Virus record (IMG/VR): IMGVR_UViG_2690316086_000003
Coordinates: 1-13,866 of that record
Reading direction: 5' to 3' (one strand)
Length of the DNA stretch: 13,866 nucleotides
Origin: a virus
Lineage: Duplodnaviria; Heunggongvirae; Uroviricota; Caudoviricetes
A model generated the notes under the pieces. That model ran no database searches and was not told the origin of the DNA. It worked only from the letters and a program-made list of their open reading frames with translations. Both the position numbers and the translations under genes were made by a program. Shown here piece after piece: positions 1 through 13,866 of this stretch; positions within the stretch are counted from its first letter, which is position 1, and each line of letters starts with the position of its first letter.

Positions 1-539
1 TTACATTTATGCTTAACCCACCCGATGGCATGCAGCTTAAGCTCCGGATACATGGCGTTAACTTCTGGCATTTTCATCAACGCTTCAACGATATGTCCGT
101 CGAATGTTGCCATGTCTTCCTGCAACAATTCCTGTGCGCTAATCACCATATCAACGGTGATGTTTTCACATGTGTCGAACTTAACCATGACAGCGTTCTG
201 TACTTCAGGGGCCAGCTTGTCAAAAGTGACGTTCATCGGATCGGATTCAGTCTCAACCGGGACAAAAGAAGCAGACTCCTCATCCCAGCGGTTTTCCTGC
301 ATATATTCAGCATCCCATGAATCGAGGGCAGGGCGGGGTATGCCAGGTTTATCCTCGCAGACAATAAATTTATAAGCGCAGTCCTGAGCAGCCGGATAAT
401 GTTCCAGGAACTGCCAGTGAAATTTTGCTCGAGCACGGCGTTCGTCGCCAGCTTCAATGGCTGTGGCTACAGCCACAGCGCCTTCTTCCCTTGTTGCCAG
501 TTCGTCAGGAATAGCGGCGCAAATAAAGACTTTACTCAT
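1..539 (-). CDS. hypothetical acidic phage early-region protein; 3' end lies beyond the window start
   Basis: Hand translation of the minus strand from ATG (complement of 537-539) gives MSKVFICAAIPDELATREEGAVAVATAIEAGDERRARAKF... and runs to position 1 with no stop. GAGG lies about 9 nt upstream of the ATG. Absent from the ORF track because it has no in-window stop. The plus-strand ORFs 9..320 and 25..375 are antisense to it. Confidence 0.6.
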   Translation of the reverse strand, partial: MSKVFICAAIPDELATREEGAVAVATAIEAGDERRARAKFHWQFLEHYPAAQDCAYKFIVCEDKPGIPRPALDSWDAEYMQENRWDEESASFVPVETESDPMNVTFDKLAPEVQNAVMVKFDTCENITVDMVISAQELLQEDMATFDGHIVEALMKMPEVNAMYPELKLHAIGWVKHKC

Positions 540-634
540 TTTGTTTTAACCTCATGACAGATTTAAGGATGAATAAATCCCTGCCATTGCTGGCATTTTT
601 AATCCGTTGGTATGGCGTTAATATGGCTGGAGGT

Positions 635-823
635 TTATCCAGCCGGCGTTTCGTTATTCAGGTACAGCAATACTTTTTTTAACGGGAGGCATTCACCGGG
701 GATTTTTTGTTCGTCCCTTACCTGAATGCAGGATGACTTACTGTCATAAATTCCGGTAATCACATTTTGTGGCTCACCCGTTATAAGAAAAACGGTCATC
801 ACCAGTGCAAACGCTGAAGTCAC
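635..823 (-). CDS. small hypothetical membrane protein (62 aa), translationally coupled to the upstream gene
   Basis: GTG start overlaps the upstream stop (GTGA). The N-terminal segment SAFALVMTVFLITG is hydrophobic, consistent with one transmembrane helix or signal anchor. No homology recognised. Confidence 0.35.
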   Translation of the reverse strand: MTSAFALVMTVFLITGEPQNVITGIYDSKSSCIQVRDEQKIPGECLPLKKVLLYLNNETPAG

Positions 824-1008
824 TGCTGTTCTCCGATAATACCAAGTTCAAGAAGGGCAATTCTGGAAAGTATGGAATTATCATTGAGAAGATAAGGTTC
901 ATATTTTCTCATCTTAATGGCATCTTCAGTAAACTCCCGGTTACTGAGCAGAACACCAATATCAAAACAACCTTCAGACGTATTAACGTTTGGTAATAAC
1001 GTTTCCAT
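820..1008 (-). CDS. small hypothetical protein (62 aa), first of two coupled small genes
   Basis: ATG at 1008-1006 (minus) is preceded by GAGGA with a 7-nt spacer. Product METLLPNVNTSEGCFDIGVLLSNREFTEDAIKMRKYEPYLLNDNSILSRIALLELGIIGEQQ. The longer 97-aa version in the ORF track starts at a GTG with no RBS. The stop TGA overlaps the GTG of the next gene. Confidence 0.4.
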   Translation of the reverse strand: METLLPNVNTSEGCFDIGVLLSNREFTEDAIKMRKYEPYLLNDNSILSRIALLELGIIGEQQ

Positions 1009-1575
1009 TATCGCGTCCTCAACAATGAATTTTGTGATGCAGTGCCTGGTGCCTCCAGGTGACGTTAACCAGTTAACAATTAACGCCGGATACAGAGAAT
1101 CCACCCATAACACTGTTTTTGGTTTTAACTGTTCCGCGTGCGCATAGCCGCATTCACCGCATCACAAAATTCACTTTAAAAAGGGCGGCAGAGCAGCCAC
1201 GGAGTAAAACTGATACCGCCAAACGTCACCAGAAAATTGATAACAGAGGGCGTTGCAGCGGGGTTGTCACTTAAGCGTATGGTCAACCTGACAACCCGGT
1301 GTCCTCAACGGGGAAGAAATAACCCCGCCATACTTACCGCCGCGCCATTTCGCGGAGTGCCACAACCGGAAGCGCACGGTCGACGAAAATTTAACGACAG
1401 GCTATCTATGAACCAGCAACCTCGCCGTGCGCTTTCGCGTTATGCTCTGACTTTTCAGAGAAATATCCTTTCAGTAAACTGTCAGTGCCGGATGTTCACC
1501 CGTGTCCGGCGCACGCACTCCACTTTACCCGTGGAGAACTCCTTAATTACCAACCTTAGCTTCGTTGGTTAGCTA

Positions 1576-1794
1576 TTAACGCGGGTATGTAATCATGCTG
1601 GCAATGCTTAATGCCGCTGCTTTTTCCAGATTGGTGATATCCTGCTCCAGAGCGGACAGATTTTCAGCCTGCTTAGCCCTGGCTTCATTGGCCCATTTCA
1701 GATCCTGCGCTGCATTAATTTTCTGGTGCATCCACTCATAAAGTTCATCATCGGTATAGTCTGGCGCGATGATGACGGGTTCTCGTTTCTGCAT
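1576..1794 (-). CDS. small hypothetical early-left operon protein (72 aa)
   Basis: ORF-track entry MQKREPVIIAPDYTDDELYEWMHQKINAAQDLKW...; ATG preceded by GAGGA with a 6-nt spacer. It lies in the same leftward operon as the two small genes upstream of it. Confidence 0.55.
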   Translation of the reverse strand: MQKREPVIIAPDYTDDELYEWMHQKINAAQDLKWANEARAKQAENLSALEQDITNLEKAAALSIASMITYPR

Positions 1795-1824
1795 ACTGAT
1801 TCCTCGCGGTGCTGTTTTCGCTTA

Positions 1825-1953
1825 TCAGCCGTTAGATTTTGCCGAGCTGGAAAGCGCCTGTTTAAATTCGCTGAAGCTGAGAGCTTCTTCGCCTTCGGCA
1901 AGGCCTTCGAAGTATTCTTCGTAAGCCTTTTCCATGATTGTGTCGAAATCCAT
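1825..1953 (-). CDS. small hypothetical protein (42 aa), Rac-type YdaF/YdaG-like position
   Basis: Hand translation gives MDFDTIMEKAYEEYFEGLAEGEEALSFSEFKQALSSSAKSNG. AGGTGG sits 5 nt upstream of the ATG, inside the 3' end of the preceding gene. Too short for the ORF track. Confidence 0.45.
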   Translation of the reverse strand: MDFDTIMEKAYEEYFEGLAEGEEALSFSEFKQALSSSAKSNG

Positions 1954-1954
1954 A

Positions 1955-2110
1955 TCACCCACCTGAATTTCTTTCCAGCCAGCGACGCGCTCCAGATTCG
2001 GTTTTAAACGTTTTGCTTTTGGTATACGTCATCGCGGTGAACGTACCGTCCTGGTTGGGGAACACGCCACATACCAGAGATTCGCTGTTGCCAAGATCGA
2101 TAGTATCCAT
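1955..2110 (-). CDS. small hypothetical protein (51 aa), Rac-type YdaF/YdaG-like position
   Basis: Internal ATG of track ORF 1955..2191 with GAGG 5 nt upstream. Product MDTIDLGNSESLVCGVFPNQDGTFTAMTYTKSKTFKTESGARRWLERNSGG. It is the first gene downstream of the leftward promoter next to the repressor gene. Confidence 0.5.
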   Translation of the reverse strand: MDTIDLGNSESLVCGVFPNQDGTFTAMTYTKSKTFKTESGARRWLERNSGG

Positions 2111-2291
2111 GCTGACCTCATTTCCCCTTAACGCCGGGGTAGCGGAACAAAAACCTGCTGCATAGTTATTAAAGTTGAACCCTGCCGTCATGTTCTTACG
2201 CCTCGGGCTGGCTACTTAACCCCTGACCACTGCCTGGTAACTCGAGGTATTGCCCTGTATTGTGTGGGACGGGATGGGTTGGTATGGGAAA

Positions 2292-2357
2292 ACTATAGGA
2301 AATGCCTAATTACTTGTCAATAGGCTATGCCTAATAATTTGGGCGCGACCTAATAGG
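2292..2357 (-). promoter_or_regulatory. pL-like leftward sigma70 promoter with repressor operator inverted repeats
   Basis: On the minus strand: -35 TTGACA (complement of 2315-2320), 17-nt spacer, -10 TATAGT (complement of 2292-2297). Inverted repeats TAGGA-aat-GCCTA (2296-2308), TAGGC-tat-GCCTA (2321-2333) and ACCTA-a-TAGGT (2347-2357) overlap or flank the promoter. Confidence 0.5.
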
Positions 2358-2428
2358 TGATGGTTTGTGGGAGAGGTAGTAGGAGTTAACTAACGGGAAC
2401 TAGGAATTTCCCGTCGGACCATATAAGT

Positions 2429-2905
2429 TTAAGTTCCTGTCTTGGTGATGTTCTGGCTTTTCCGTTTTGATTCTTGATTTTTCAGATAGTTAGCTACCTT
2501 CATTTCCATTGCGGCAATGTAGGCGCGAACGTCATGATCAACCCAACTAGGCTCCGTAGCATTTCCAGATAAGAGGAAAGCCACAATTGCTCTTTTTTCA
2601 TCAGAGGCGGCTTGATAAAGGCTGTTTATGTCTAAAAGTTCACTTTTTGTATCTGAAGTGGATGGGGTTGGTATGGGGTATTCGTTAAGCCCCCAATGCT
2701 CTGGACCAACCACATCAGAAAAGAAACGCCATAGTTCTGGAAGTTTGTCTTTACTTATCGAACCTTTCTTAATCCAGTCATGGATTGATGGTGGTTGGAC
2801 TTTGAAATGACGTGCGATTTCCGCCTTTGATTTGACGGCTCCTGATGCAATTTTTTTGTTAATGGCCTGCTCTATCGCTCGGCCTAAGTCTTTACCACTA
2901 AGCAT
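2429..2905 (-). CDS. racR: prophage repressor, RacR-like (CI-type HTH repressor)
   Basis: 158-aa ORF MLSGKDLGRAIEQAINKKIASGAVKSKAEIARHFKVQPPSIHDWIKKG... with an HTH near residues 24-47. AGGAGA RBS upstream. Divergent from a Cro-like gene. Length and sequence match my memory of Rac prophage RacR. Confidence 0.85.
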   Translation of the reverse strand: MLSGKDLGRAIEQAINKKIASGAVKSKAEIARHFKVQPPSIHDWIKKGSISKDKLPELWRFFSDVVGPEHWGLNEYPIPTPSTSDTKSELLDINSLYQAASDEKRAIVAFLLSGNATEPSWVDHDVRAYIAAMEMKVANYLKNQESKRKSQNITKTGT

Positions 2906-2958
2906 TGCTTAATAGTCTCCTATGCGCATCGCGTTAGGCAATCCCTACTCTCGATGTG

Positions 2959-3002
2959 TTAGGCATAGCCTATTGACAATTGTATTAGGCTAAGCCTAAT
3001 AT
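2959..3002 (+). promoter_or_regulatory. pR-like rightward sigma70 promoter with repressor operator inverted repeats
   Basis: -35 TTGACA (2973-2978), 18-nt spacer, -10 TAATAT (2997-3002). Operator inverted repeats TAGGC-ata-GCCTA (2960-2972) and ATTAGGCT-a-AGCCTAAT (2984-3000). The block 2959-2979 is the exact reverse complement of 2314-2334. Confidence 0.55.
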
Positions 3003-3029
3003 TGTTGCGTGTTTTTTGGAGTTCATTCG

Positions 3030-3353
3030 ATGAAAAAAGATAACTATTCATTCAAACGAGCTTGTGCTGTTGTCGGTGGGCAATCAGCAATGGCTAGGCT
3101 TTTAGGTGTATCTCCTCCAAGCGTAAATCAATGGATCAAAGGTGTACGTCAGTTGCCTGCTGAGAGATGTCCTGCGATTGAACGAGCAACAAAAGGTGGT
3201 GTCCTGTGTGAAGAACTTCGTCCTGATGTTGATTGGACATACTTACGACGCTCGTCATGTTATTCGCAGAATATGTCGATGAAGCAACCAAATGACGAAA
3301 ACGATCATACCCGAAGCATCAAGAGGCAAATGATTCATGAAAATCAAACATGA
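3030..3353 (+). CDS. ydaS: Cro-like HTH regulator, YdaS-like
   Basis: ATG at 3030 with GGAG 8 nt upstream; the track ORF begins at an upstream GTG. HTH segment GGQSAMARLLGVSPPSVNQWIKG. Divergent from the repressor gene, in the Rac-type order racR-ydaS-ydaT. Confidence 0.7.
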   Translation: MKKDNYSFKRACAVVGGQSAMARLLGVSPPSVNQWIKGVRQLPAERCPAIERATKGGVLCEELRPDVDWTYLRRSSCYSQNMSMKQPNDENDHTRSIKRQMIHENQT

Positions 3354-3762
3354 GCACATCCGCATGGCGATGAATGCCTGGGCATACCCTGATGGTGAGA
3401 AAGTTCCTGCAGCTGAAATAGCCCGGACTTATTTCGAACTGGGGATGACGTTCCCTGAACTGTACGACGACAGCCATCCGGAAGCCCTGGCCCGTAATAC
3501 ACAGAAAATTTTCCGTTGGCTGGATAAAGACACCCCTGATGCTGTTGAAAAAATTCAGGCTCTGTTACCGGCGATCGAAAAGGCAATGCCGCCTCTGCTG
3601 GTGGCCCGTATGCGCAGTCACAGCTCTGAGTATTACCGGGAGATTGTCGAACGGCGGGATCGGCTGGTGAAGGATGTCGACGATTTTGTTGCGTCAGCGG
3701 TTGTTTTGTATGACCAGATGAATCGCGGCGGCCCGGCAGGGAATGCTGTGGTGATGCACTAA
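3337..3762 (+). CDS. ydaT: YdaT-like protein (partner of YdaS in Rac-type prophages)
   Basis: ORF of about 140 aa, MKIKHEHIRMAMNAWAYPDGEKVPAAEIARTYFELGMTF..., overlapping the 3' end of the ydaS-like gene by 17 nt. Length and position match YdaT as I recall it. Confidence 0.7.
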   Translation: MKIKHEHIRMAMNAWAYPDGEKVPAAEIARTYFELGMTFPELYDDSHPEALARNTQKIFRWLDKDTPDAVEKIQALLPAIEKAMPPLLVARMRSHSSEYYREIVERRDRLVKDVDDFVASAVVLYDQMNRGGPAGNAVVMH

Positions 3763-3784
3763 AAGCACGGTGTTCGGGGGTTTT

Positions 3785-4747
3785 ATGAGCAGCAAGCTTC
3801 ATGGTCTTGTCTGGGAAGGGTGCGCCTTCACCGGCATGATCTTATCCAGGGTGGCGGTTATGGCCCGTCTTGCAGACTACAGCAATGACGAGGGTGTGTC
3901 ATGGCCTGCCATTGAAACTATCCGGCGTCAGATCGGTGCAAGAAGTGAATCCACAGTGAAATCGGCTATTGCAGAACTGGCGAAAGAGGGCTGGCTGACG
4001 AAGGAAGAGCGTAAGGTCGGTGGGCGTAATGTAAGCAATATCTATCGGCTTAATGTGGAAAAACTCGAAGCAGCAGCTGCGGCGGCGCGTGAGTCATATA
4101 AACCGAAAAGAAAAATTAGCCCGGCAAAAAATGACCAGTTAACAGTTGACCCGTCAAATATTGCCCCCTCAACGGTTGACCCGTCAAATTTTGATGGATC
4201 AACTGTTGATAAAAAACTGCCGATTAGGGGGGCGATGATTGACCCCGATCCGTCAGTATTAAAACCTGATCCGTCAGATAAAAGATCTTCTTGTCCGGAC
4301 GCTTCGCAACCGGACCCGCAGACGGCTGAACAGGATTTTTTAACCCGACACCCTGACGCGGTTGTGTTCAGTGCGAAAAAACGCCAGTGGGGAAGTCAGG
4401 AAGATTTGGTGTGCGCACAGTGGATCTGGGGACGAATCGTGAGTCTTTACGAGCAGGCGGCCAGCTATGATGGCGAGATCACTAGACCGAAAGAACCCAA
4501 CTGGACAGCATGGGCCAATGACGTTCGCACAATGCGGATGCTGGATGGCAGAACTCACAGACAAATTTGTGAAATGTTTGGGCGTCTCCAGCGGGATTCG
4601 TTCTGGGTAAAAAACATCATGAGTCCGGCAAAACTCCGGGAAAAATGGGATGAACTGGTTATCCGCCTGGGGCGTTCGCCTGCGCAGCGTTGCGTGAATC
4701 ACATTTCTGAACCGGACACTGAAATTCCGCCGGGCTTCAGGGGGTAA
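3785..4747 (+). CDS. phage replication initiator, lambda O-like / YdaU-like (N-terminal HTH domain, low-complexity linker, C-terminal domain)
   Basis: ATG at 3785 preceded by a GGGGG run; the track ORF starts at an upstream GTG at 3770. The N-terminal region (...SRVAVMARLADYSNDEGVSWPAIETIRRQIGARSESTVKSAIAELAKEGWLTKE...) looks like a replication-protein HTH. The central linker is encoded by the direct DNA repeats listed below. The position after the cro-like genes matches the replication module. Confidence 0.7.
   Translation: MSSKLHGLVWEGCAFTGMILSRVAVMARLADYSNDEGVSWPAIETIRRQIGARSESTVKSAIAELAKEGWLTKEERKVGGRNVSNIYRLNVEKLEAAAAAARESYKPKRKISPAKNDQLTVDPSNIAPSTVDPSNFDGSTVDKKLPIRGAMIDPDPSVLKPDPSDKRSSCPDASQPDPQTAEQDFLTRHPDAVVFSAKKRQWGSQEDLVCAQWIWGRIVSLYEQAASYDGEITRPKEPNWTAWANDVRTMRMLDGRTHRQICEMFGRLQRDSFWVKNIMSPAKLREKWDELVIRLGRSPAQRCVNHISEPDTEIPPGFRG
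4138..4277. repeat. iteron-like repeat cluster inside the replication-initiator gene (putative ori)
   Basis: Exact 15-bp direct repeat GTTGACCCGTCAAAT at 4145-4159 and 4175-4189, each containing the palindrome TTGAC-cc-GTCAA. Related palindrome TCAAC-t-GTTGA at 4199-4209. GATCCGTCAG repeated at 4247-4256 and 4268-4277. GTTAAC at 4138-4143. Confidence 0.45.
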
Positions 4748-4787
4748 GTGTTAATTTCTGGTCATGAGGTAACTTTCAGGAGGGCTT

Positions 4788-5210
4788 GTGGCAAAAGTTT
4801 TTACACAAGAAGAGCGGGAAAAAATTAAAGGGCAGGTTGTTGAACTCGTACGCCAGAGTGGGCGCGAGACGTTACGACAACTGGAAACTAAAACTGGGGC
4901 AACAAGATATCTGATGAGCGTTCTGGCCAGAGAGCTGGTTGCCAGTGGCGATGTATACAATTCTGGCTACGGGTTATTCCCGTCTGAACAGGCTCGTAAA
5001 GACTGGCAAAATGCCCGCAAAAAACTCTCAAGGGCAAAGCTGAAGAAACCATCTGCGGTTGATCCGGACCTTATCTGGTCATTACCAGATGGCGAAATAC
5101 GCCGCTACGACAGGCGTCTGAACATAATCTGTCTCGAGTGCCGGAAGAGCGAAGTTATGCAGCGCGTACTGGCGTTTTATCAGGGGAATTTTGAGGAGGT
5201 GGTGCGGTGA
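4788..5210 (+). CDS. hypothetical protein (140 aa), replication-module position
   Basis: GTG start with AGGAGG 5 nt upstream. Product MAKVFTQEEREKIKGQVVELVRQSGRETLRQLETKTGATRYL.... Stop overlaps the next start (GTGA). Confidence 0.6.
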   Translation: MAKVFTQEEREKIKGQVVELVRQSGRETLRQLETKTGATRYLMSVLARELVASGDVYNSGYGLFPSEQARKDWQNARKKLSRAKLKKPSAVDPDLIWSLPDGEIRRYDRRLNIICLECRKSEVMQRVLAFYQGNFEEVVR

Positions 5211-5461
5211 GTGAATCAAAATGCCAGGTTAATGGCAACAAGATAGAACCATGTGCAGCACTGGCAAAGTCCCTTGAGCATGATGCTGAATACACGATGC
5301 GAAAAGGTCTGCTGATATACAAAATCTGGAATGAGAGTTTAACTCGCGGTCCTGATTTTGTGATGTTGCGTTCCGGTGAATTTTCTAAATTACCAGTTCG
5401 GGTTTCATTTTGTCCGTTCTGTGGTGAAAGTCTGAAAACGTGGGAGAACAGAAATGAATGA
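5207..5461 (+). CDS. hypothetical small protein (84 aa) with Cys pairs C6/C16 and C69-P-F-C72 (possible zinc ribbon)
   Basis: GTG start overlaps the upstream stop, with GAGGAGG 7 nt upstream. The four Cys are arranged C-x9-C ... C-x2-C. Its 3' end overlaps the next start (ATGAATGA). Confidence 0.55.
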   Translation: MSESKCQVNGNKIEPCAALAKSLEHDAEYTMRKGLLIYKIWNESLTRGPDFVMLRSGEFSKLPVRVSFCPFCGESLKTWENRNE

Positions 5462-5765
5462 AATTAAAGAAATACCAGTAGTACGTGATGAATATGGCTG
5501 CTGGACGCATCCTGAATATGAAAAATTCTGTGACGGTCGGGAATATATTTCAACGGAAGAGTTTAACGCCTGGATGGAGGAAAATAATCTTCAATACGTC
5601 CTCTGCTTCAGAGATGAAGGATGTGCTGACCTTGATGCGTGTGATGCTGATATTTCTGCATGGGAACCGGAACGACCAGAGGGCAATGGATGGTTTATTG
5701 GTTCAATACATGACACCGAAGATGGCCCGGTTTGTGTATGGCTGAGAAATAAGGCCGAAGCATAA
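5454..5765 (+). CDS. hypothetical Cys-rich acidic protein (103 aa)
   Basis: ATG overlaps the preceding stop. Product MNEIKEIPVVRDEYGCWTHPEYEKFCDGREYISTEEF.... It is the last gene before the AT-rich island. Confidence 0.6.
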   Translation: MNEIKEIPVVRDEYGCWTHPEYEKFCDGREYISTEEFNAWMEENNLQYVLCFRDEGCADLDACDADISAWEPERPEGNGWFIGSIHDTEDGPVCVWLRNKAEA

Positions 5766-6070
5766 AGGCTATAAACCGACTAACAACTAAATACTGAAGA
5801 TTTAAATCAGAAACGATTTTTATTAAATCCTTAACCGGAGGGATTCTGCACCCTCAGAACATCAGGAGGCCGTCTGAAAGGGCGGAACAGATAATGCTTA
5901 CGTTGAAACATTTTATCGACATACCAACATGGTTAGCCGTCATTGCTTTTGTTAAAATACACATCCACTTTTCTGTGCAATGTTTAACCACTGGTCATAT
6001 CAAATGGCATTCATGCGAACCATGATATAGAATCATGGCTTGAGAGAGTCGATGAAAGCGCAACTATGGT

Positions 6071-6649
6071 ATGAGAGACATTGATGTAAGAAAGGCTGTG
6101 CATGCCAAGATTCTGAGAGATCATCATAAAGATCCTGACACCCTAATCATTGATGAGTTTACGATGAATCTAGGGGCTAGCAGAGCTGATATAGCAGTGA
6201 TCAATGGGCTTATACATGGTTATGAGTTGAAGAGCAAGAGTGATAACTTGCTCAGATTACCAGCGCAGGTGCAACATTACTCATCAGTGATGGATAAAGT
6301 AACTTTGGTTGTCTCTGATTGCCATCTTTATGATGCTTTAAGCATAGTTCCATCATGGTGGGGGATAAAGCAAGTTACGCAAGGTGCACGGCAAGGTATC
6401 CATTTAAAAACAATTCGAACTAGCAAGTTGAATCCACAAGTGGACAAACTTTCCTTAACAATGCTTCTTTGGAAAGATGAATTGCTTTCCCTATTAAGTG
6501 ATGTAGGGGAGCTACAGAATTTGAAAAATAAACCTAAACGCGTCTTATGGTCAAAACTCGCCAATAGTATGGATGTTGGCGAGCTTCGTGAAGCTGTTCG
6601 AGTTAAACTTAAAGCCCGTAAAGAGTGGCGAGTTGCTCAACAACCTTAG
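6071..6649 (+). CDS. hypothetical protein with PD-(D/E)xK-like nuclease motif; recalled as 'sce7726-family-like'
   Basis: 192-aa ORF with AT-rich codon usage. Motif arrangement E29 (IIDEF), D40 (RADIAVI), E52-L-K54 (GYELKSK), which is the classic order for the restriction-endonuclease-like fold. Family assignment is from memory only. Confidence 0.7.
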   Translation: MRDIDVRKAVHAKILRDHHKDPDTLIIDEFTMNLGASRADIAVINGLIHGYELKSKSDNLLRLPAQVQHYSSVMDKVTLVVSDCHLYDALSIVPSWWGIKQVTQGARQGIHLKTIRTSKLNPQVDKLSLTMLLWKDELLSLLSDVGELQNLKNKPKRVLWSKLANSMDVGELREAVRVKLKARKEWRVAQQP

Positions 6650-7706
6650 TTATGTGATGGTTTTGCCCAATCCTACGCCATACCTCTGGGCTACCAAATT
6701 TATAGTTACCAGAGGGATTGGCTTTGTAGGCTTGATACTCGTTTGCATAATATTCTATGTCTCTATCTCCCGCACAGAATGTAGGCCCTGAATATTCTCG
6801 ATGAGCAAGAATATCCTCACTATGTTTACCATATTGTTCATAACCAAAGCGATTAGCTACTCTTCCTCGAAATACCCAAAAGTCATTATCTCCAGAGTAT
6901 CTGACGCTGGCAGATACGCTAGGGAATCGCGTCGAAAGCCTATTAAAGTCGGGGTGCTGTACTCCATAATCACTATAAATCACATTTCTGGCAAGTTCTT
7001 TTCTATTCATTAAACTCTGCCATAAAATCCACTCGATTCGAGGTTGAGAATATAGACCAACAGAAATATCACTGAGATCTGTAGGAAATGAACCCCCAGA
7101 AAGAATCACTTTTCTGTATTCATTGAGGTGCGCCAGATTGTTTATCAATCCCATTGCCAAAGTATATAGTTCGCCGGAATTAATTTTATCCTCGGTTAAC
7201 TCATCTCTTAAGTCAATAATTATATCAATATTTGATAAAGGAATTCCCAGATGATTAATGTAATGCGTTATTAATTGTGGGTTAACCAGATCTAACGTGG
7301 TTAATCTCAAGCATATTTCATTCTGCATTAATTCATCAATCGCTCTTTTATAGTTAGATGGGCGAGTTGGTGAACTGACAGGAATAACTCTTATCCCCAT
7401 ATCTCTAACTTGATTAACCGCATTTATTATAGGGTAATGATCTTCAGGAGAAATAAAATGCTCTTCAATTAATAATCCATCAATATAAACACCTTGCATA
7501 TCTGAGCAAGATTTTGAGACTTTCTTTCCGAACTCTATAAGAGTCTCGTTATAACTCTTTAAGGCAATACCTGAATCAGGGTCAATTGGCACTGGTTCAA
7601 TTTCGAGTAATGGCAAAATTTTTGATTTCTTTTCAATGGATAGCTGCGATAAAGCTGATAACTCAGAACGTTTCGCTTTCAGAATAGGAATATATGAAAT
7701 TGTCAT
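6609..7706 (-). CDS. hypothetical protein, recalled as 'beta protein / sce7725-family-like' (function unknown)
   Basis: 365-aa ORF, MTISYIPILKAKRSELSALSQLS..., AT-rich, with AAGG about 8 nt upstream of the ATG. Convergent with the 192-aa gene and overlapping its 3' end by 41 bp. The N-terminal Y-x-P-I-L-K-x-K motif matches my recollection of this family. Confidence 0.8.
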   Translation of the reverse strand: MTISYIPILKAKRSELSALSQLSIEKKSKILPLLEIEPVPIDPDSGIALKSYNETLIEFGKKVSKSCSDMQGVYIDGLLIEEHFISPEDHYPIINAVNQVRDMGIRVIPVSSPTRPSNYKRAIDELMQNEICLRLTTLDLVNPQLITHYINHLGIPLSNIDIIIDLRDELTEDKINSGELYTLAMGLINNLAHLNEYRKVILSGGSFPTDLSDISVGLYSQPRIEWILWQSLMNRKELARNVIYSDYGVQHPDFNRLSTRFPSVSASVRYSGDNDFWVFRGRVANRFGYEQYGKHSEDILAHREYSGPTFCAGDRDIEYYANEYQAYKANPSGNYKFGSPEVWRRIGQNHHITKVVEQLATLYGL

Positions 7707-8263
7707 GTTAATACCTTATACAGAATCAATTAACAATTAATGGTTCTTCGGACATTGAAATTTATATCGCAAAAATTGGCAAACTCTCCTCGACTACTCA
7801 CTTGTGGGTATCCTGGCGTAAAAGGAATGACTTGGCAATACCCGGTGTGATCATAAGTCATTGAAAATGATCATTTTTATCAGTCTTTCTTCCATGATGA
7901 ATGCTAATGCCATTTGATTTGTTGAGGTGAAAACTGTTAAAAATCAAAACGATGTAATTGAAATGAACGTTCGGTAGCATTCACGCTTTAAATGTTTCTT
8001 TTGTGCTGATTGGATGAATTTGGGTCACTTATGATGAGAGATGTTGCAGGAAAAGAAGTTGGCATTGATCTATTGGATAGTTAGAATTGCTGCGGGTGCT
8101 TGAGGCTATCTGCCTCAGGTATGAACACCAAAAGGCAGATAGAGAAAAGCCCCAGTTAACATTACGCGTCCGGCAAGACGCTTAACATTAATCTGAGGCC
8201 AATTTCATGCTTTGCACATGTAGGTTAGCCTCTTACGTGCCGAAAGGCAAGGAGAAGCAGGCT

Positions 8264-8419
8264 ATGAAGCAGCAAAAGGCGATGTTAATCGCCCTGATCG
8301 TCATCTGTTTAACCGTCATAGTGACGGCACTGGTAACGAGGAAAGACCTCTGCGAGGTACGAATCCGAACCGGCCAGACGGAGGTCGCTGTCTTCACAGC
8401 TTACGAACCTGAGGAGTAA
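8264..8419 (+). CDS. hokD: Hok/Gef-family small membrane toxin (51 aa)
   Basis: Product MKQQKAMLIALIVICLTVIVTALVTRKDLCEVRIRTGQTEVAVFTAYEPEE, with one transmembrane helix and the LCEVR signature. GGAG lies 9 nt upstream. The track ORF at 8207 is an in-frame upstream extension. The sequence matches HokD/RelF as I recall it. Confidence 0.8.
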   Translation: MKQQKAMLIALIVICLTVIVTALVTRKDLCEVRIRTGQTEVAVFTAYEPEE

Positions 8420-8487
8420 GAGACCAGGCGAGGGAGAAATCCCTCGCCACCTCTGATGAGTCAGGCATCCTCAACGCACCCGCACTT

Positions 8488-8515
8488 AACCCGCTTCGGC
8501 GGGTTTTGTTTTTTC
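8488..8515 (+). terminator. rho-independent terminator downstream of hok
   Basis: Stem AACCCGC (8488-8494), loop TTCG, stem GCGGGTT (8499-8505), then a T-rich run TTTTGTTTTTT. The hairpin GGCGAGGGA-gaaa-TCCCTCGCC at 8427-8448 lies just upstream. Confidence 0.7.
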
Positions 8516-8586
8516 CTGGCATTCTGGTTTACAATTCGCACGTCAGCCTGAACACCTGACACCTGCTGCGCCAGCAGAGAAAACAG

Positions 8587-8859
8587 ATGGTGCACAAAAC
8601 CAAATTTCACAATTCTGATACCGACCTTGCCATCCGGCATGGGCGGCGTTCACACGCATTTAAAACCGACTGGTACCAACACCCATCATGTACTGAAGAA
8701 CAGGCCGAATGGCTAATTCATAACTACCGCAGACGCGGATACGAGATTAAGAAAGCCCTCAGCCTCGATTATCGTCACTGGATAATCTATGTCAGGCTCC
8801 CTTATTCCGAACGCTCACCGCGCCCATCCCGCACATACCAGCAACGGATCTGGAGGTAA
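8587..8859 (+). CDS. hypothetical protein (90 aa), Qin-type Rem-like position
   Basis: ATG at 8587. Its stop TAA (8857-8859) lies inside the RBS-to-start region of the DUF968 gene. It sits between hok and the DUF968 gene, like rem in the Qin prophage as I recall it. No confident homology. Confidence 0.5.
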   Translation: MVHKTKFHNSDTDLAIRHGRRSHAFKTDWYQHPSCTEEQAEWLIHNYRRRGYEIKKALSLDYRHWIIYVRLPYSERSPRPSRTYQQRIWR

Positions 8860-8860
8860 C

Positions 8861-9910
8861 GTGCGGATATTACTTCGACCTGTTCTGGTACCGGAACTCG
8901 GGCTGGTGGTCCTTAGGCCGGGCCGTGAATCCATGCAAGTATTTCATAACCCTCGAGTGCTGGTGGAGCCTGAACCGAAAAGCATGCGCGGTCTGCCGTC
9001 CGGAGTCGTCCCTGCCGTTCGCCAGCCGCTGGCGGAGGATAAATCATTTCTGCCATTTTTCAGCGATGAGCGGGTGATTCGTGCTGCTGGCGGCGCTGGG
9101 GCACTGTCTGACTGGCTGTTGCGTCATGTCAAATCCTGCCAGTGGCCTCATGGTGACTATCATCACAGTGAAATCGTCATACATCGTTACGGTACCGGCG
9201 CGATGGTGTTGTGCTGGCACTGCGACAACCAGTTGCGTGACCAGACATCCGAATCACTCGGGCAACTTGCTCATCAAAACCTGTCAGCATGGATGATTGA
9301 CGTCATACGCCATGCAATGAATGGCACGCAGGAGCGGGAATTGTCGCTGGCTGAATTATCCTGGTGGGCGGTCTGCAATCAGGTGGCGGACGCGCTTCCG
9401 GAGGCAGTATTACGTCGTTCTCTGGGGTTACGTGCGGAAAAAATCCGCTCCTTGTACCGCGAAAGCGACATCGTACCGGGAGAGCAGACCGCCATCAGCA
9501 TACTGAAACAGCGCACAAAAAATCTTGCGCCGCTGCCTCACGCCCACCAGCAACAGAACCCACCACAGGAAAAGACGGTGGTCAGCATTGCCGTTGATCC
9601 TGAGTCTCCGGAATCTTTCATGAAACGACCTAAACGTCGCCGCTGGGTTAACGAGAAATACACACGCTGGGTGAAGACTCAGCCGTGTGCGTGTTGTGGT
9701 AAGCCAGCCGACGATCCCCATCACCTGATTGGTCATGGTCAGGGCGGAATGGGGACAAAATCTCACGATATTTTCACGCTACCGCTGTGTCGGGAGCATC
9801 ACAACGAGCTTCATGCGGATCCGCTGGCGTTCGAAGAAAAGCATGGTTCTCAGGTTGATTTAATTTTTCGTTTTCTTGATCACGCCTTTGCAACTGGCGT
9901 GCTTGGGTAA
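8861..9910 (+). CDS. DUF968-type prophage protein (YdfU-like) with C-terminal Cys/His cluster
   Basis: GTG at 8861 with GGAGG 4 nt upstream; the track ORF 8789..9910 extends further upstream in the same frame. C-terminus ...QPCACCGKPADDPHHLIGHGQGGMGTKSHDIFTLPLCREHHNELH is an HNH-like or zinc-binding motif. Confidence 0.7.
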   Translation: MRILLRPVLVPELGLVVLRPGRESMQVFHNPRVLVEPEPKSMRGLPSGVVPAVRQPLAEDKSFLPFFSDERVIRAAGGAGALSDWLLRHVKSCQWPHGDYHHSEIVIHRYGTGAMVLCWHCDNQLRDQTSESLGQLAHQNLSAWMIDVIRHAMNGTQERELSLAELSWWAVCNQVADALPEAVLRRSLGLRAEKIRSLYRESDIVPGEQTAISILKQRTKNLAPLPHAHQQQNPPQEKTVVSIAVDPESPESFMKRPKRRRWVNEKYTRWVKTQPCACCGKPADDPHHLIGHGQGGMGTKSHDIFTLPLCREHHNELHADPLAFEEKHGSQVDLIFRFLDHAFATGVLG

Positions 9911-9922
9911 AAGAGGTGACTG

Positions 9923-10282
9923 ATGCTCATAGATTTGGTTTTACCTTACCCGCCGACGGTGAACACTTACTGGCGACGCCGTGGCAGCACATATTTTATC
10001 TCGGAGGAGGGAAAGCGTTATCGCCGGGCTGTGGCGCTTATTGTTCGCCAGCAGCGGCTGAAATTAAGCCTGTCCGGAAGGCTGGCGATAAAGATTATTG
10101 CAGAGCCACCGGATAAGCGCCGTCGTGATCTGGACAATATCCTGAAAGCACCGCTGGATGCGCTGACGCATGCCGGACTTCTCATAGACGACGAGCAGTT
10201 TGATGAAATCAATATTGTGCGCGGTCAGCTCGTTTCTGGTGGGCGGCTGGGCGTGAAGATTTACAAAATTGAAAGTGAGTGA
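9923..10282 (+). CDS. rusA: RusA-type Holliday junction resolvase
   Basis: 119-aa ORF MLIDLVLPYPPTVNTYWRRRG...PPDKRRRDLDNILKAPLDALTHAGLLIDDEQ.... The RRRDLDN and DALT motifs resemble RusA. AAGAGG RBS with a 6-nt spacer. Confidence 0.8.
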   Translation: MLIDLVLPYPPTVNTYWRRRGSTYFISEEGKRYRRAVALIVRQQRLKLSLSGRLAIKIIAEPPDKRRRDLDNILKAPLDALTHAGLLIDDEQFDEINIVRGQLVSGGRLGVKIYKIESE

Positions 10283-10290
10283 GCATAAAT

Positions 10291-10845
10291 ATGATATACC
10301 CGGAAATTACAGGCAAAAGCGGTGAGCATTTACGCCTGAAAACGCTGGAAAGTGTCTGGATCCAGGGGAAACTGCGTATGTGGGGGCGTTGGTCGTATAT
10401 TGGCGACGGTAAGACGGGAAATATGTTCAACCAATTACTGACCTCTAAAAAGCTGACAAAAACGGCAATTAACGAGGCGCTCCGGAGGATGAAAAAAGCG
10501 GGTCTGGACAAACCTGAACTTGAGGCTTTTTTGCGGGATATGATCAACGGCAATCAAAAAAGCTGGCTGGCACATTGTACCGATTCAGAGGCGTTAATAA
10601 TCGACAGGGTTATTGGTGAAGTACTGGCAGGTTATCCCGGGCTGCTCAATGTTCTGAGTCAGCGTTATGTGGGGCGGGGGATGACTAAGCGCAAAATGGC
10701 TGAACTGCTGAATGATGCACATCCGGAATGGAGTTTAAGAACCTGTGAAAGACGCATTGAGCATTGGCTAAAGGTGGCAGAATTTATTTTGTACAAACCA
10801 ATGGTTATGGCTTTTGGTATAGAGAAAAAAGTTATTGCTTTTTGA
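10291..10845 (+). CDS. putative late-gene antiterminator Q-like protein
   Basis: ATG at 10291; the alternative GTG at 10279 overlaps the rusA stop. Position after rusA and just before a short terminated leader. Loose resemblance to small Q/QuuD-type proteins (an MWGRWSY-type segment and basic C-terminal helices), from memory. Confidence 0.5.
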   Translation: MIYPEITGKSGEHLRLKTLESVWIQGKLRMWGRWSYIGDGKTGNMFNQLLTSKKLTKTAINEALRRMKKAGLDKPELEAFLRDMINGNQKSWLAHCTDSEALIIDRVIGEVLAGYPGLLNVLSQRYVGRGMTKRKMAELLNDAHPEWSLRTCERRIEHWLKVAEFILYKPMVMAFGIEKKVIAF

Positions 10846-10922
10846 CGTAAAAACTGCTTCAATTCCGGTAAGCTTCGCAAAGCTGTACCGCGAGGCGAAT
10901 AGCAGACATGGACATTTGAAAG

Positions 10923-10947
10923 AGCCCGCTTTTTGCGGGTTTTTTTA
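10923..10947 (+). terminator. rho-independent terminator (tR'-like) downstream of the Q-like gene
   Basis: AGCCCGC-ttttt-GCGGGT hairpin followed by a run of 7 T. It lies about 80 nt after the Q-like stop, as expected for a late-promoter leader. Confidence 0.65.
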
Positions 10948-11068
10948 TGACTGAAAAACGGCACGGGGCGTTAAATGCGCTGGTGGTTGCGAATACCGGT
11001 CTTTCTGCTTACTGGCTTTTTGGACAAGAGTTATTGGTATGTCACGTTAACCAAAAGGGAAAAAAGAC

Positions 11069-11266
11069 ATGCTAAAACAGCAGGATATGACAGAAACCGC
11101 CAGAGTGGTGTTTAATGAATTAAGCGTTACCGACCCGGCGACAGTCGGGGAGATTGCGCAGAATACTTACCTTTCACGCGAACGCTGCCAGTTAATACTG
11201 ACCCAGCTTGTTATGGCGGGTCTGGCAGACTATCAGTTCGGTTGTTACAGACGCCTTCCGCAGTGA
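11069..11266 (+). CDS. small winged-helix/HTH-like protein (65 aa)
   Basis: AAGGGA upstream of the ATG. The segment TVGEIAQNTYLSRERCQLILTQLVMAGLAD looks like an HTH. The stop sits in the loop of a terminator hairpin. Confidence 0.5.
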   Translation: MLKQQDMTETARVVFNELSVTDPATVGEIAQNTYLSRERCQLILTQLVMAGLADYQFGCYRRLPQ

Positions 11267-11276
11267 AGGCTTTTTT
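11253..11276 (+). terminator. rho-independent terminator
   Basis: GCCTTC (11253-11258), loop CGCAGT, GAAGGC (11265-11270), followed by TTTTTTATTT. Confidence 0.6.
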
Positions 11277-11416
11277 ATTTGTGGTAAATGGGCGGCTGGT
11301 GGGTGTTAGGGGCACCTACCAGCCATCTGCTCATGCGTTGGGTTCACAAGCAAACCTCAGGCCCACTGCTTTGCGCAAAAGCAGAATGAGCCTATCAGAG
11401 ACAGGCTTAATGATCC

Positions 11417-12493
11417 ATGCTTAATACTGTAAAAATATCCAGTTGTGAGTTAATCAACGCTGATTGCCTGGAATTTATCCAGACCTTACCGGAAAACTCT
11501 GTCGATCTGATAGTCACAGACCCGCCATACTTTAAAGTGAAGCCCGAGGGCTGGGATAACCAGTGGAAGGGCGACGATGATTACCTGAAGTGGCTGGACC
11601 AGTGTCTGGCGCAGTTCTGGCGGGTGCTGAAACCTGCCGGAAGTCTTTACCTGTTCTGTGGCCATCGCCTGGCATCTGACATTGAAATCATGATGCGTGA
11701 ACGCTTCAATGTGCTGAACCATATTATCTGGGCGAAGCCGTCCGGACGCTGGAACGGGTGCAACAAGGAAAGCCTGCGGGCGTATTTTCCGGCCACAGAA
11801 CGCATTCTGTTCGCGGAACATTATCAGGGGCCGTATCGTCCGAAAGATGATGGCGATGAGGCGAAGGGCAGGGCACTGAAACAGCATGTGATGGCCCCGC
11901 TGATTTCTTACTTTCGTGATGCGCGTGCTGCTCTTGGGATAACGGCAAAACAGATTGCAGATGCCACAGGAAAGAAAAACATGGTGTCGCACTGGTTCAG
12001 TGCCAGTCAGTGGCAGCTACCGAACGAAAGCGATTATCTGAAATTACAGTCGCTGTTTGCCCGGGTGGCAGAAGAGAAACATCAGCGGGGAGAACTGGAA
12101 AAGTCCCATTACCAACTGGTCAGCACATACAGTGAGCTGAACCGGCAGTACATGGAACTGCTGAGTGAATATAAAAATTTGCGGCGGTATTTCGGTGTGA
12201 CGGTGCAGGTGCCGTACACCGATGTGTGGACGCATAAACCGGTGCAGTACTATCCAGGGAAACATCCGTGCGAAAAACCGGCAGAAATGCTGCGGCAGAT
12301 AATCTGCGCGAGCAGTCGTCCGGGTGACCTGGTGGCGGATTTTTTCATGGGTTCTGGCTCAACCATAAAAGCAGCTATGGCGCTCGGGCGTCGTGCAACT
12401 GGTGTTGAACTGGAGGCAGAACGTTTTGCGCAGACCGTTAAGGAGATTAGTCACATCCTTACATGCTCAATTGATGACGGGAAGGATGGATAA
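11417..12493 (+). CDS. orphan DNA N6-adenine methyltransferase (beta-class, DPPY motif) with a central inserted domain
   Basis: 358-aa ORF. N-terminal motif IV ...VDLIVTDPPYF..., C-terminal motif I ...DLVADFFMGSGSTIKAAMALGRRATGVELE.... An insert of about 150 aa lies between them. No adjacent restriction endonuclease gene is recognisable. Confidence 0.85.
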   Translation: MLNTVKISSCELINADCLEFIQTLPENSVDLIVTDPPYFKVKPEGWDNQWKGDDDYLKWLDQCLAQFWRVLKPAGSLYLFCGHRLASDIEIMMRERFNVLNHIIWAKPSGRWNGCNKESLRAYFPATERILFAEHYQGPYRPKDDGDEAKGRALKQHVMAPLISYFRDARAALGITAKQIADATGKKNMVSHWFSASQWQLPNESDYLKLQSLFARVAEEKHQRGELEKSHYQLVSTYSELNRQYMELLSEYKNLRRYFGVTVQVPYTDVWTHKPVQYYPGKHPCEKPAEMLRQIICASSRPGDLVADFFMGSGSTIKAAMALGRRATGVELEAERFAQTVKEISHILTCSIDDGKDG

Positions 12494-13715
12494 AGATATG
12501 GTCAGTTCAGGCTGTGAAGCAAGTAGACAGATAAGGCTGCAATAAAAACTGACAATAGTAAAATAGCTTTTTCCCAGGTAGTCATGAATACGATCTCTTA
12601 AAGCGCCCGCTGATACCAGCGGGCAATACATACTGGCATTAATGTTAAGTTCAGGGATAATTCATCGTATTTTGTGGTACGACGCTATCAATATTAATAA
12701 ACAGTATTTTTCATGTAAAATTTCTGTTTTTTTGATCTGATTCTCGTTTCCTGGGTTATGATGTTGTTGTGAACCATGCTGTTGAATGATAATGTTCGGG
12801 TATAAAATTGTTGCTGATATGTAGCGCAGTGAGCAGGTGGTATTTCTGTTGCTGAGTGTACGGATACAGTGCTTCCCTCCCTCAGCGGGGGGGCAGGTGT
12901 GCTGTGGTTTTAGAGACACCGGAAACGAGAATGATGCGGGTTTGCTGGTGCCGGGATAGAGTCGCCGGAGGTCATGACATAGAGCAAAAAAGGAATGTGC
13001 ATGCAAATACACACCTCTTCGGAGAGCTCTTCTTTATATGGATGAGCCTCAAGGTCAATAGTTTATCTGTTATGTATTCATATGTTGTTACTTATATAAT
13101 CCATACGGGCATATCATCAGTACACACATACTATTATGGCATTTTATTTTTGTTTTAACTGAATTCCCGGGGCACTCTTTTTGATTTCTGATAAGGAACC
13201 AGAATTTTCTGTTAAATGGTGTCACGTTGTAAATGGTTAATGGAAGCAGCTTATTATCCATAATCACACCTGAGTTAACAGGTGTGAGAATACTTCCGGG
13301 TGGCAGGAACACATCTGACTGATACCAGATTATCAACTTTATTTTACACCATACAGTTGAAAACGTTATTCCGCTTGATGGGCATATCACTGTGTCAATA
13401 ACTATCCATTCCATCTTTTAACCTTCTCGGTACACATTGCTTTCGATTGTTTTGCTAAAAATCATAGTCAATAAATCAGTGTAACTCATTGAAAAAGATC
13501 GTCTTCTTTGTCTTCCTGGGGTTTTCTTTTCTAATTTTGTATCACTTTGGTTCAAGTTGTTTCATTTTTTTGTAATACAAATTAGCAGGATGAGCGGGAA
13601 TATAAAAAAATCGGATGTTTTTGTAATGGATATTATTTTTTTGTAAAATAATGTATTTTTATTTAAATCTCTATCAGAAAAGAATTTATTGTTCCTTTAT
13701 ATGGTGGAAAAGGTC

Positions 13716-13866
13716 ATGGTATTTAAACACTACGATGTGGTCAGGGCGGCGTCGCCGTCAGATCTTGCGGAAAAGCTGACACAAAAACTGAAGGAGGGGT
13801 GGCAGCCATTTGGCAGCCCGGTGGCCATCACGCCTTATACTCTGATGCAGGCCATTGCGGCGGAAG
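13716..13866 (+). CDS. hypothetical phage protein, 5' part (continues beyond the window end)
   Basis: ATG at 13716 with GGTGG 8 nt upstream, after a very AT-rich promoter-like region. Translation MVFKHYDVVRAASPSDLAEKLTQKLKEGWQPFGSPVAITPYTLMQAIAAE... has no stop before the window end. Confidence 0.5.
   Translation, partial: MVFKHYDVVRAASPSDLAEKLTQKLKEGWQPFGSPVAITPYTLMQAIAAE

Follow-up and report, generated by a model that had tools for sequence, protein, structure and literature searches.

Does a lambdoid prophage keep its origin of replication inside the gene of its own replication initiator, as phage lambda does, also when the DNA-binding part of that initiator belongs to another protein family, and of which elements would such an origin be made? 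The question is raised by a stretch of 13,866 nucleotides (nt) of a virus of the Caudoviricetes (IMG/VR record IMGVR_UViG_2690316086_000003, positions 1 to 13,866; the whole stretch is called the window in the following), in which an O-like replication initiator gene contains a cluster of short repeats. An earlier note, made from the letters of the sequence, had described this cluster as a probable prophage origin. We consider it likely that the region of about 4132-4292 is the replication origin of the prophage, made of initiator-binding iterons and located inside the initiator gene as in lambda. This reading of the sequence is supported because the gene is identified by its profile (phrog_391) and by the homology of its C-terminal domain, the array has the same position as in lambda, the repeats are conserved at the DNA level, and each type of DNA-binding module comes with its own repeats.

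Repeat anatomy within the initiator gene

The gene and the elements within it are the following (aa, amino acids; AF2, AlphaFold2; pLDDT, its local confidence score; ORF, open reading frame):

3785..4747, plus strand: O-like replication initiator gene, 320 aa, intact ORF (phrog_391, 1.5e-114; Pfam HTH_36; WP_032229337.1)
3785..4099, plus strand: predicted N-terminal winged-helix DNA-binding domain, aa 1-105 (HTH_36; helices and beta-hairpin wing in AF2)
4103..4291, plus strand: predicted disordered linker, aa 107-169, carrying all units (AF2 pLDDT below 50)
4132..4201, plus strand: distal iteron array, five units at 15-bp period (comparison with relatives), with the cores TGACCAGTTA at 4132, TGACCCGTCA at 4147, TGCCCCCTCA at 4162, TGACCCGTCA at 4177 and TGATGGATCA at 4192
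4246..4276, plus strand: two proximal units 21 bp apart, CGATCCGTCA at 4246 and TGATCCGTCA at 4267, each with a Dam GATC site
4253..4292, plus strand: candidate DNA-unwinding region, lowest in stability among all 40-mers of the gene and its 300-bp flanks, 68% A+T
4316..4675, plus strand: C-terminal domain, aa 178-297 (confident in AF2; BLASTP; alignment A1)
4682..4744, plus strand: predicted disordered tail AQRCVNHISEPDTEIPPGFRG, aa 300-320 (14/21 identical to the DnaT C-terminus)

All elements that the earlier note had reported were recovered: the exact 15-bp unit GTTGACCCGTCAAAT occurs twice 30 bp apart (4145-4159 and 4175-4189), both copies contain the palindrome TTGAC-CC-GTCAA, two further copies of GATCCGTCAG follow at 4247-4256 and 4268-4277, and the linker peptide that is encoded by the repeats reads TVDPSN..TVDPSN..DPDPSV..KPDPSD in the translation. 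Three parts of the description were refined. The element TCAAC-T-GTTGA is present at 4199-4209, but what had been taken for a mirrored repeat represents the end junction of unit 5 (TGATGGATCA), and the cluster, which had been placed at 4138-4277, has a putative functional span of about 4132-4292. In total we recognise seven units, which have a palindromic core TGAY-NN-RTCA, lie in a common reading frame (xxT GAY NNN TCA) and start with their cores at 4132, 4147, 4162, 4177, 4192, 4246 and 4267, so that the array spans nt 348-492 of the gene; the first five follow each other at an exact period of 15 bp, and in unit 5 the central CC is replaced by GG.

Units 1 and 3 are degenerate in the window allele, which is why only the two perfect copies had been noticed at first reading. 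Among 80 near-identical IMG/VR copies that were compared for population alleles, the majority base is C at 4137 (77/80) and A at 4164 (67/80), and these alleles restore units 1 and 3 to TGACCCGTTA and TGACCCCTCA; the window carries the minority alleles A at 4137 (3/80) and C at 4164 (13/80), with the protein changes P to Q and D to A, respectively. The polymorphism among the same copies was also considered as a test of constraint and dropped, since 28 variable sites represent too little diversity.

The units are concentrated at this one place. All five matches to TGAYCCGTCA in the window (at most 1 mismatch, both strands) lie within 4147-4276. When TGAC-NN-GTCA was searched with at most one mismatch in the arms, four matches were found within 150 bp, a number that was reached in none of 1000 random first-order Markov sequences (six of them had three matches in 150 bp), and a second cluster of this core was not found in the 13.9-kb window (6 scattered matches, about 5 expected).

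Conservation of the units among homologues

We compared the gene with 13 homologues that have the N-terminal domain type of the window (Escherichia, Shigella, Klebsiella, Citrobacter, Yersinia and Erwinia). The set includes E. coli variants with 88-94% DNA identity and the following phage or prophage loci: Shigella (SfIV type), Klebsiella (three phages), Citrobacter phiNP, Yersinia YeP1, Escherichia phage LLS and phiP27. The N-terminal halves (aa 1-170) of these phage and prophage loci are 44-56% identical to that of the window, and for Erwinia tracheiphila the value is 62%. All 13 homologues contain 6-11 units, of which 4-8 follow the 15-bp period and, beyond a gap of 33-54 bp, 2-3 are spaced 21-24 bp apart. 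The units that correspond to 4246 and 4267 form the linker DNA that is conserved most.

The comparison with related prophages that the earlier note had proposed shows that the nucleotides of the repeats are kept, those at wobble positions among them, and that the peptide varies. This is the opposite of a linker that is conserved as peptide while its nucleotides drift, the outcome by which, according to the note, the idea would have been refuted. The arms TGA..TCA are near-invariant (1.0-1.9 bits per position) and the central bases vary between CC, GC, AC and GG, by which the encoded residue becomes P, A, T or G. Serine is encoded by TCA in 101 of 175 linker codons (nt 289-510) versus 37 of 265 elsewhere (Fisher 4e-22), and within the window alone in 7 of 10 versus 1 of 18 (p = 7e-4). 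This test counts the whole linker and is therefore independent of the choice of units; it replaced a first count, on units that had been picked by their match to the arms, which was circular. Likewise, Asp codons are preceded by T in 66/116 linker cases versus 55/161 elsewhere (p = 2e-4).

The number of units differs by steps of 15 bp between close relatives (8, 10 and 11 in L101, L102 and L098, from Klebsiella and Escherichia phages), and a 15-bp deletion separates E. coli variants (L094-L096) from the window; judged from these sequences, the array seems to expand and contract by whole steps of five codons. In a more diverged homologue (L109, a circular 44-kb Klebsiella phage record) the 15-bp period is kept and the distal core is CTGGACGTCCAG (core variants among relatives: TGACNNGTCA versus CTGGACGTCCAG), and the two proximal GATCCRTCAGTA units are unchanged despite the altered distal core.

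The position of the array was compared with that in the known in-gene origins. The GenBank records place the four iterons of lambda at nt 349-433 of gene O, one nucleotide from the start of the window array at nt 348, and the four gp15 sites of phi80 at nt 365-441 of gene 15; CAGTATTAAAAGATCTTCGTCCG of phi80 is common to the CAGTATTAAAA...GATAAAAGATCTTCTTGTCCG of the window. The least stable 40-mer (4253-4292) overlaps the proximal units, as it does in most homologues, and the equivalent 40-mer ranks first or second for instability in 10 of the 13. In alignment A1 it coincides with the A-rich segment that lies 3' of the iterons in lambda (79% A+T; K-R/K-x-S-S anchor).

In homologues that share the C-terminal domain but have other N-terminal domains, this site is occupied by dyad-symmetric repeats of other families: 5 x 23 nt in E. 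albertii and relatives (L004, CATCGGGTCAAAATGACACGATG), at least 6 x 23 nt in Citrobacter (L010, AGAATGCGGAACCACCGCAAAC) and 3-4 x about 24 nt in Rahnella (L011, GTGTCACTACCGTAGTGACA), where the N-terminal domain is a true Phage_rep_O (Pfam, 2.7e-34) fused to the same C-domain type. Because a period of 23 bp is not a multiple of 3, the repeats of the L004 and L010 types cannot be peptide repeats. Each of the five N-domain types (window, L004, L010, L011 and lambda O) has its own repeat family, which does not occur in the genes of the other types; the only extra matches concern the short core TGAC-NN-GTCA, in L010 and in lambda O, and are at chance level. The N-terminal domain of the window type was found together with its units in front of three different C-terminal domains (lambda-O-like, Phg_2220_C and phiP27 type), with the mosaic recombination junction located just after the units. 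The neighbouring genes vary both upstream (YdaT, Rha and others) and downstream (DUF977, DnaC-like, methylase and PerC-like), and since they do so while the N-terminal domain and the units stay together, it is unlikely that the units are bound by neighbouring gene products.

These results bear directly on the possibility that the units are a by-product of slippage, that is, peptide repeats (D-x-S-N/K) of a low-complexity linker that have no function as DNA. The predicted disorder of the linker and the variation of copy number in 15-bp steps between close relatives are what such a process would leave behind. However, it is the DNA palindrome that is conserved and not the peptide, given the fixed arms and the changing middle residue; TCA is kept for serine across lineages whose N-terminal halves are as divergent as given above; the wobble T before GAY is enriched; homologues with other N-terminal domains have out-of-frame repeats of 23-bp period at the same site; and in lambda and phi80 experimentally defined iterons are found there (PMC7466680). 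We therefore regard slippage without DNA function as improbable.

The initiator, its prophage setting and a possible mechanism

The 320-aa protein matches PHROG 391, 'replication initiation O-like', with 1.5e-114. A Pfam scan returned HTH_36 at aa 25-71 (27.9 bits) and DnaD_N at E = 0.005, which is below the cut-off, and no match of the N-terminal domain to Phage_rep_O (PF04492). In an AF2 model that was built on 30 homologues, aa 1-105 are modelled with a pLDDT of 72-88 and with the beta-hairpin wing at aa 71-89, and this domain is the presumed reader of the iterons. The best PDB matches that Foldseek retrieved for the whole model are dimeric winged-helix regulators (PaaX, MarR and PadR) with weak E-values (1.8e-3 or worse), by which the model supports the winged-helix fold but not a specific family. 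Since the part of the protein that is encoded by the units is this linker, which is predicted to be disordered, an array of binding sites can coexist with the ORF. The C-terminal domain is 39% identical to that of lambda O over 119 aa (E = 5e-26) and 36% identical to that of phi80 gp15 (E = 5e-26; both BLASTP), and aa 298-320 are again disordered in the model. A gene for a P-type helicase loader, or one of DnaC type, was not found after the initiator gene in the window; a DUF977/Ren-like gene stands there. Because the C-terminal domain is homologous to lambda O, the N-terminal domain is of the HTH_36 type and a P-type gene is lacking, the initiator is a relative of lambda O of mosaic build, whose DNA-binding module is non-homologous, and not a copy of it. 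The likeness to lambda that the earlier note had drawn is supported, with the family of the N-terminal domain and the missing loader gene as a correction.

The window sequence is a 100% match to the chromosome of E. coli O103 strain ML775 (NZ_CP193495.1), where it belongs to a Rac/Qin-like lambdoid prophage whose insertion site adjoins tRNA-Ser/mtfA. The integrase of this prophage is annotated as frameshifted (L001 2757-3807, outside the window), and for that reason the prophage is probably defective; the ORF of the initiator is intact despite the frameshifted integrase, and its cluster at 90% identity has 3163 member sequences. In the annotation by the Prokaryotic Genome Annotation Pipeline the prophage initiator is named only 'helix-turn-helix domain-containing protein'. 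The gene belongs to the early operon that runs rightward from a repressor-controlled promoter-like site (2973-3002), and the order repressor, cro-like, cII-like, O-like and Ren-like is that of lambda without P:

2429-2905, minus strand: racR-like repressor gene (annotation)
2973..3002, plus strand: pR-like sigma-70 promoter TTGACA-18-TAATAT, between the racR-like gene and the rightward operon (10/12 consensus match)
3030-3353, plus strand: ydaS, Cro-like, directly upstream of ydaT and the initiator (family matches, annotation, PMC8630535)
3337-3762, plus strand: ydaT, CII-like, directly upstream of the initiator (family matches, annotation, PMC8630535)
4788-5210: DUF977/Ren-like gene, next after the initiator

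From what was computed here, namely the repeat anatomy, the gene position, the DNA-level constraint, the module-specific repeats and the C-domain homology, we infer binding, unwinding, helicase recruitment and origin activity in four steps. Once the RacR-like repressor is lifted, transcription from the pR-like promoter would yield the initiator and would at the same time pass through the candidate origin. The winged-helix domain would then bind the dyad-symmetric units, probably as dimers (five distal and two proximal), resulting in a higher-order nucleoprotein complex that may resemble the O-some. This complex would destabilise the adjacent A+T-richer stretch (4253-4292), after which the lambda-O-like C-terminal domain and the DnaT-like tail could bring in the host helicase machinery, no gene for a phage P-type loader being present.

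Several points weigh against this reading. Fifteen bp are exactly five codons and all units lie in one frame, and a duplication would copy the codon choice along with the peptide. The candidate unwinding region contains 68% A+T, versus 79% in lambda. The half-site centres of TGAC-NN-GTCA are separated by only about 6 bp, a short distance for a classical winged-helix dimer, and it is equally possible that the binding register is GTCA-N5-TGAC, across the unit junctions. The co-variation of N-terminal domain and repeats is partly expected from their physical linkage and is supportive rather than decisive. Because the distal core changed in L109 and the proximal units did not, the proximal pair is perhaps constrained separately, and it may be so by something besides the N-terminal domain. 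The origin in the ML775 prophage, given the frameshifted integrase, may never fire productively. Finally, the literature searched contains no binding or origin-activity experiment for this N-domain family; a description of an origin with an HTH_36-type initiator was not found either, and the literature on the 'Eru' types of Stx phages and on CP-933P does not discuss iterons; in the CP-933P study the gene is simply named 'a homolog of the o gene' (PMC8630535).

The weak A+T-rich element is also an argument for a purely regulatory role, in which the units are bound by the initiator for autorepression, titration or handcuffing and the unwinding and loading take place elsewhere in the prophage. 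Control roles are also known for plasmid iterons and for those of V. cholerae chromosome II (PMC3401445), and the extra iterons of Stx phages are bound weakly, yet they are required for replication (PMC7466680). That there is no second cluster of units in the window, and that the region has the same linear arrangement as ori-lambda, down to the A-rich segment on the 3' side of the iterons, leaves such an exclusively regulatory role with a small probability, and control and origin roles are in any case not mutually exclusive.

The proximal units of the candidate origin have a further property: a stretch of 91 bp (4197-4287) contains four GATC sites (Poisson p = 1.8e-4, uncorrected), and two of these are inside the proximal GATCCGTCAG units. 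The latter two are conserved in nearly all homologues, at a distance of 21-24 bp (positions matched in L002-L003 and L094-L105), the linker of each of the 13 homologues has 2-4 GATC sites, and in many relatives a gene for a Dam-type methylase follows directly after the initiator gene. These sequence features suggest control of the origin by methylation or SeqA; SeqA affects the replication of lambdoid Stx-phage replicons (PMC7466680). The same features, together with the unchanged GATCCRTCAGTA and its partner in L109, could be taken to mean that a host factor such as SeqA or another phage protein binds the units, or at least the two proximal ones with GATC; we consider this improbable as well, as the proximal units still fit the TGAY-NN-RTCA core, the units persist while the neighbouring phage genes vary, the two iterons beside the A+T-rich region are essential in lambda (PMC7466680), and control by Dam and SeqA would add to binding by the initiator and not replace it.

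The recruitment of the helicase in the proposed mechanism may be related to the last 21 residues of the initiator (AQRCVNHISEPDTEIPPGFRG), of which 14 are identical, end to end, to the extreme C-terminus of E. coli DnaT (PDB 2ru8, 6aep, 9zbt). The tail ends with ...VNHISEPDTEIPPGFRG, where the motif IPPGFRG corresponds to the last residues of the host DnaT (primosomal protein 1). IPxGFRG is present in 44 of the 107 top homologues with a length of 270 aa or more, and 7 have the variant ...SGFRS/T. Within the loci examined, the gene after an initiator with a DnaT tail is Ren-like, PerC-like, DnaC-like or a methylase gene and in no case P-like, and initiators with a W-x-G tail (lambda, phi80, Erwinia, Rahnella) are followed by a gene for a P-like loader. 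In the structural model the tail, being predicted as disordered, looks like a short docking motif; in the papers on DnaT structure that were consulted, no role of its last ~20 residues is stated. It is conceivable, though rather doubtful, that firing is loader-free, through the DnaT tail into the PriA/PriB/DnaT-DnaB-DnaC pathway, and depends in addition on Dam and SeqA via the GATC units. Loader-independent recruitment by mimicry of the DnaT tail and control by Dam/SeqA are accordingly treated as side leads, as possibilities next to the origin itself. The architecture of HTH_36 plus a DnaT motif was noted earlier for the domesticated DopC (PMC5509034), and as it is already known, only the mechanism of recruitment by the tail would be new, if true.

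Comparison with known origins and further observations

Origins within gene O, with iterons that are followed by an A+T-rich tract, have been established for lambda and the Stx phages (PMC7466680). The window resembles ori-lambda and the origin in gene 15 of phi80 in having dyad-symmetric repeats, here putative initiator-binding sites, within the ORF, from about nt 350 and directly after the N-terminal DNA-binding domain, followed by a less stable segment as the candidate counterpart of the A-rich one and then by the homologous C-terminal domain; cro-like and cII-like genes and a pR-like promoter are found upstream and a Ren-like gene downstream. It differs from ori-lambda in the N-terminal domain (HTH_36 versus Phage_rep_O), in the repeats (10-bp cores at a 15-bp in-frame period and 5+2 units, versus four iterons of about 18-19 bp that are 20-24 bp apart), in the lower A+T content of the unwinding region, in the lack of a P-type loader gene and in the C-terminus, which is DnaT-like in the window and ...TDWIYGVDL in lambda. 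The origins of the Stx phages 933W and P27, with six iterons in gene O, likewise vary in the number of iterons within the gene (PMC7466680), and the extra iterons add residues to a part of the protein that tolerates them (PMC7466680), in parallel to the variation by 15-bp steps in the family of the window; these phages have true lambda-type O and iterons, whereas the window family has another N-terminal domain and another iteron sequence.

Three other systems share part of this organisation. The initiator G38P of phage SPP1 binds direct repeats in its own gene 38 (oriL), beside an A+T-rich unwinding element (PMC6316719), and the sub-threshold DnaD_N match of the window N-terminal domain is a further point of likeness; however, SPP1 has a Gram-positive host, unrelated protein sequences, a second origin (oriR) and a loader and a helicase that it encodes itself (gp39, gp40). 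DopC of Cellvibrionales and Oceanospirillales has an HTH_36 N-terminal domain and the DnaT C-terminal motif (PDB 2ru8_A) but is reported to be without iteron-like repeats and not at an origin, while the gene in the window keeps the array and lies in a prophage (PMC5509034); the absence of iterons was used by the authors to argue that dopC no longer is an origin (PMC5509034). The Rac prophage of K-12 has the same type of immunity region (racR, ydaS, ydaT), followed by ydaU-ydaV. Its origin, oriJ, was considered as the same element and rejected, because YdaU, a DUF1376 protein with the DnaC-like partner YdaV, represents a different initiator family.

An origin of the iteron plasmid kind (RepA, pi or TrfA type) was also considered. 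Such origins have direct iterons of ~17-22 bp at a spacing of ~22 bp (two turns), are intergenic and contain DnaA boxes. The window differs from them by its 15-bp period and by repeats inside an ORF, and matches to DnaA boxes are not enriched beyond chance across it (44 versus 31 +/- 6 expected). One perfect relaxed DnaA box, TTTTCCACA, is located at 4054-4062 (minus strand), ~70 bp upstream of the array; it is probably a chance match, as such matches are not enriched window-wide.

The initiator type is very common: of 5426 complete E. coli genomes 1518 contain it, O157:H7 and O104:H4 strains among them, and it is also found in Shigella phages (SfII, SfIV) and in phages of Klebsiella, Citrobacter and Yersinia. 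Several phage records name the homologue replication protein O or primosomal protein, and none of the homologue loci compared has an annotation of an origin or of an initiator-binding site. A known origin with a binding-site consensus would improve the annotation of prophages and would aid the reading of local over-replication after induction, as in lateral transduction and the dosage of prophage genes. With its short palindromic core, 15-bp period and natural variation in copy number, the locus also offers a defined system for the coexistence of an origin and a reading frame. The principle is textbook lambda biology, to which no new concept is added; the variant described here was previously uncharacterised.

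Weak, indirect evidence for initiator binding and autonomous replication comes from circular extrachromosomal records in which this initiator type is the only visible replication gene; one of these records has a frameshifted initiator ORF. The 'plasmid' pZ1322PEC0161-2, a circle of 16 kb, was considered as evidence for autonomous replication and judged weak, on account of its frameshifted initiator ORF. Record L108 (NZ_CP148542.1), 15,977 bp, circular and deposited as an E. coli plasmid, contains the early-right and lysis region of a prophage only, with this initiator type plus a DnaC-like gene; it has no recognised plasmid replicon, and its initiator ORF is frameshifted. It may represent an over-replicated or excised circle that contains the origin, or an assembly artefact.

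A terminator-like hairpin on the minus strand (4138-4121) is no more than chance predicts. The Rfam scan of the window found no RNA family in or near the origin and two families elsewhere: the DicF small RNA at 1183-1234 (minus strand, 75 bits) and the sok antitoxin RNA of the hokD locus at 8094-8269 (plus strand, 119 bits). Further downstream of the initiator gene, the genes of sce7726/'cll' (6071-6649, plus strand) and of the Beta protein (6609-7706, minus strand; Pfam PF14350) are convergent. The pair (6071-7706) matches the PADLOC models cll and PD-Lambda-2_C and, judged by these matches, is probably an anti-phage defence moron within the prophage.

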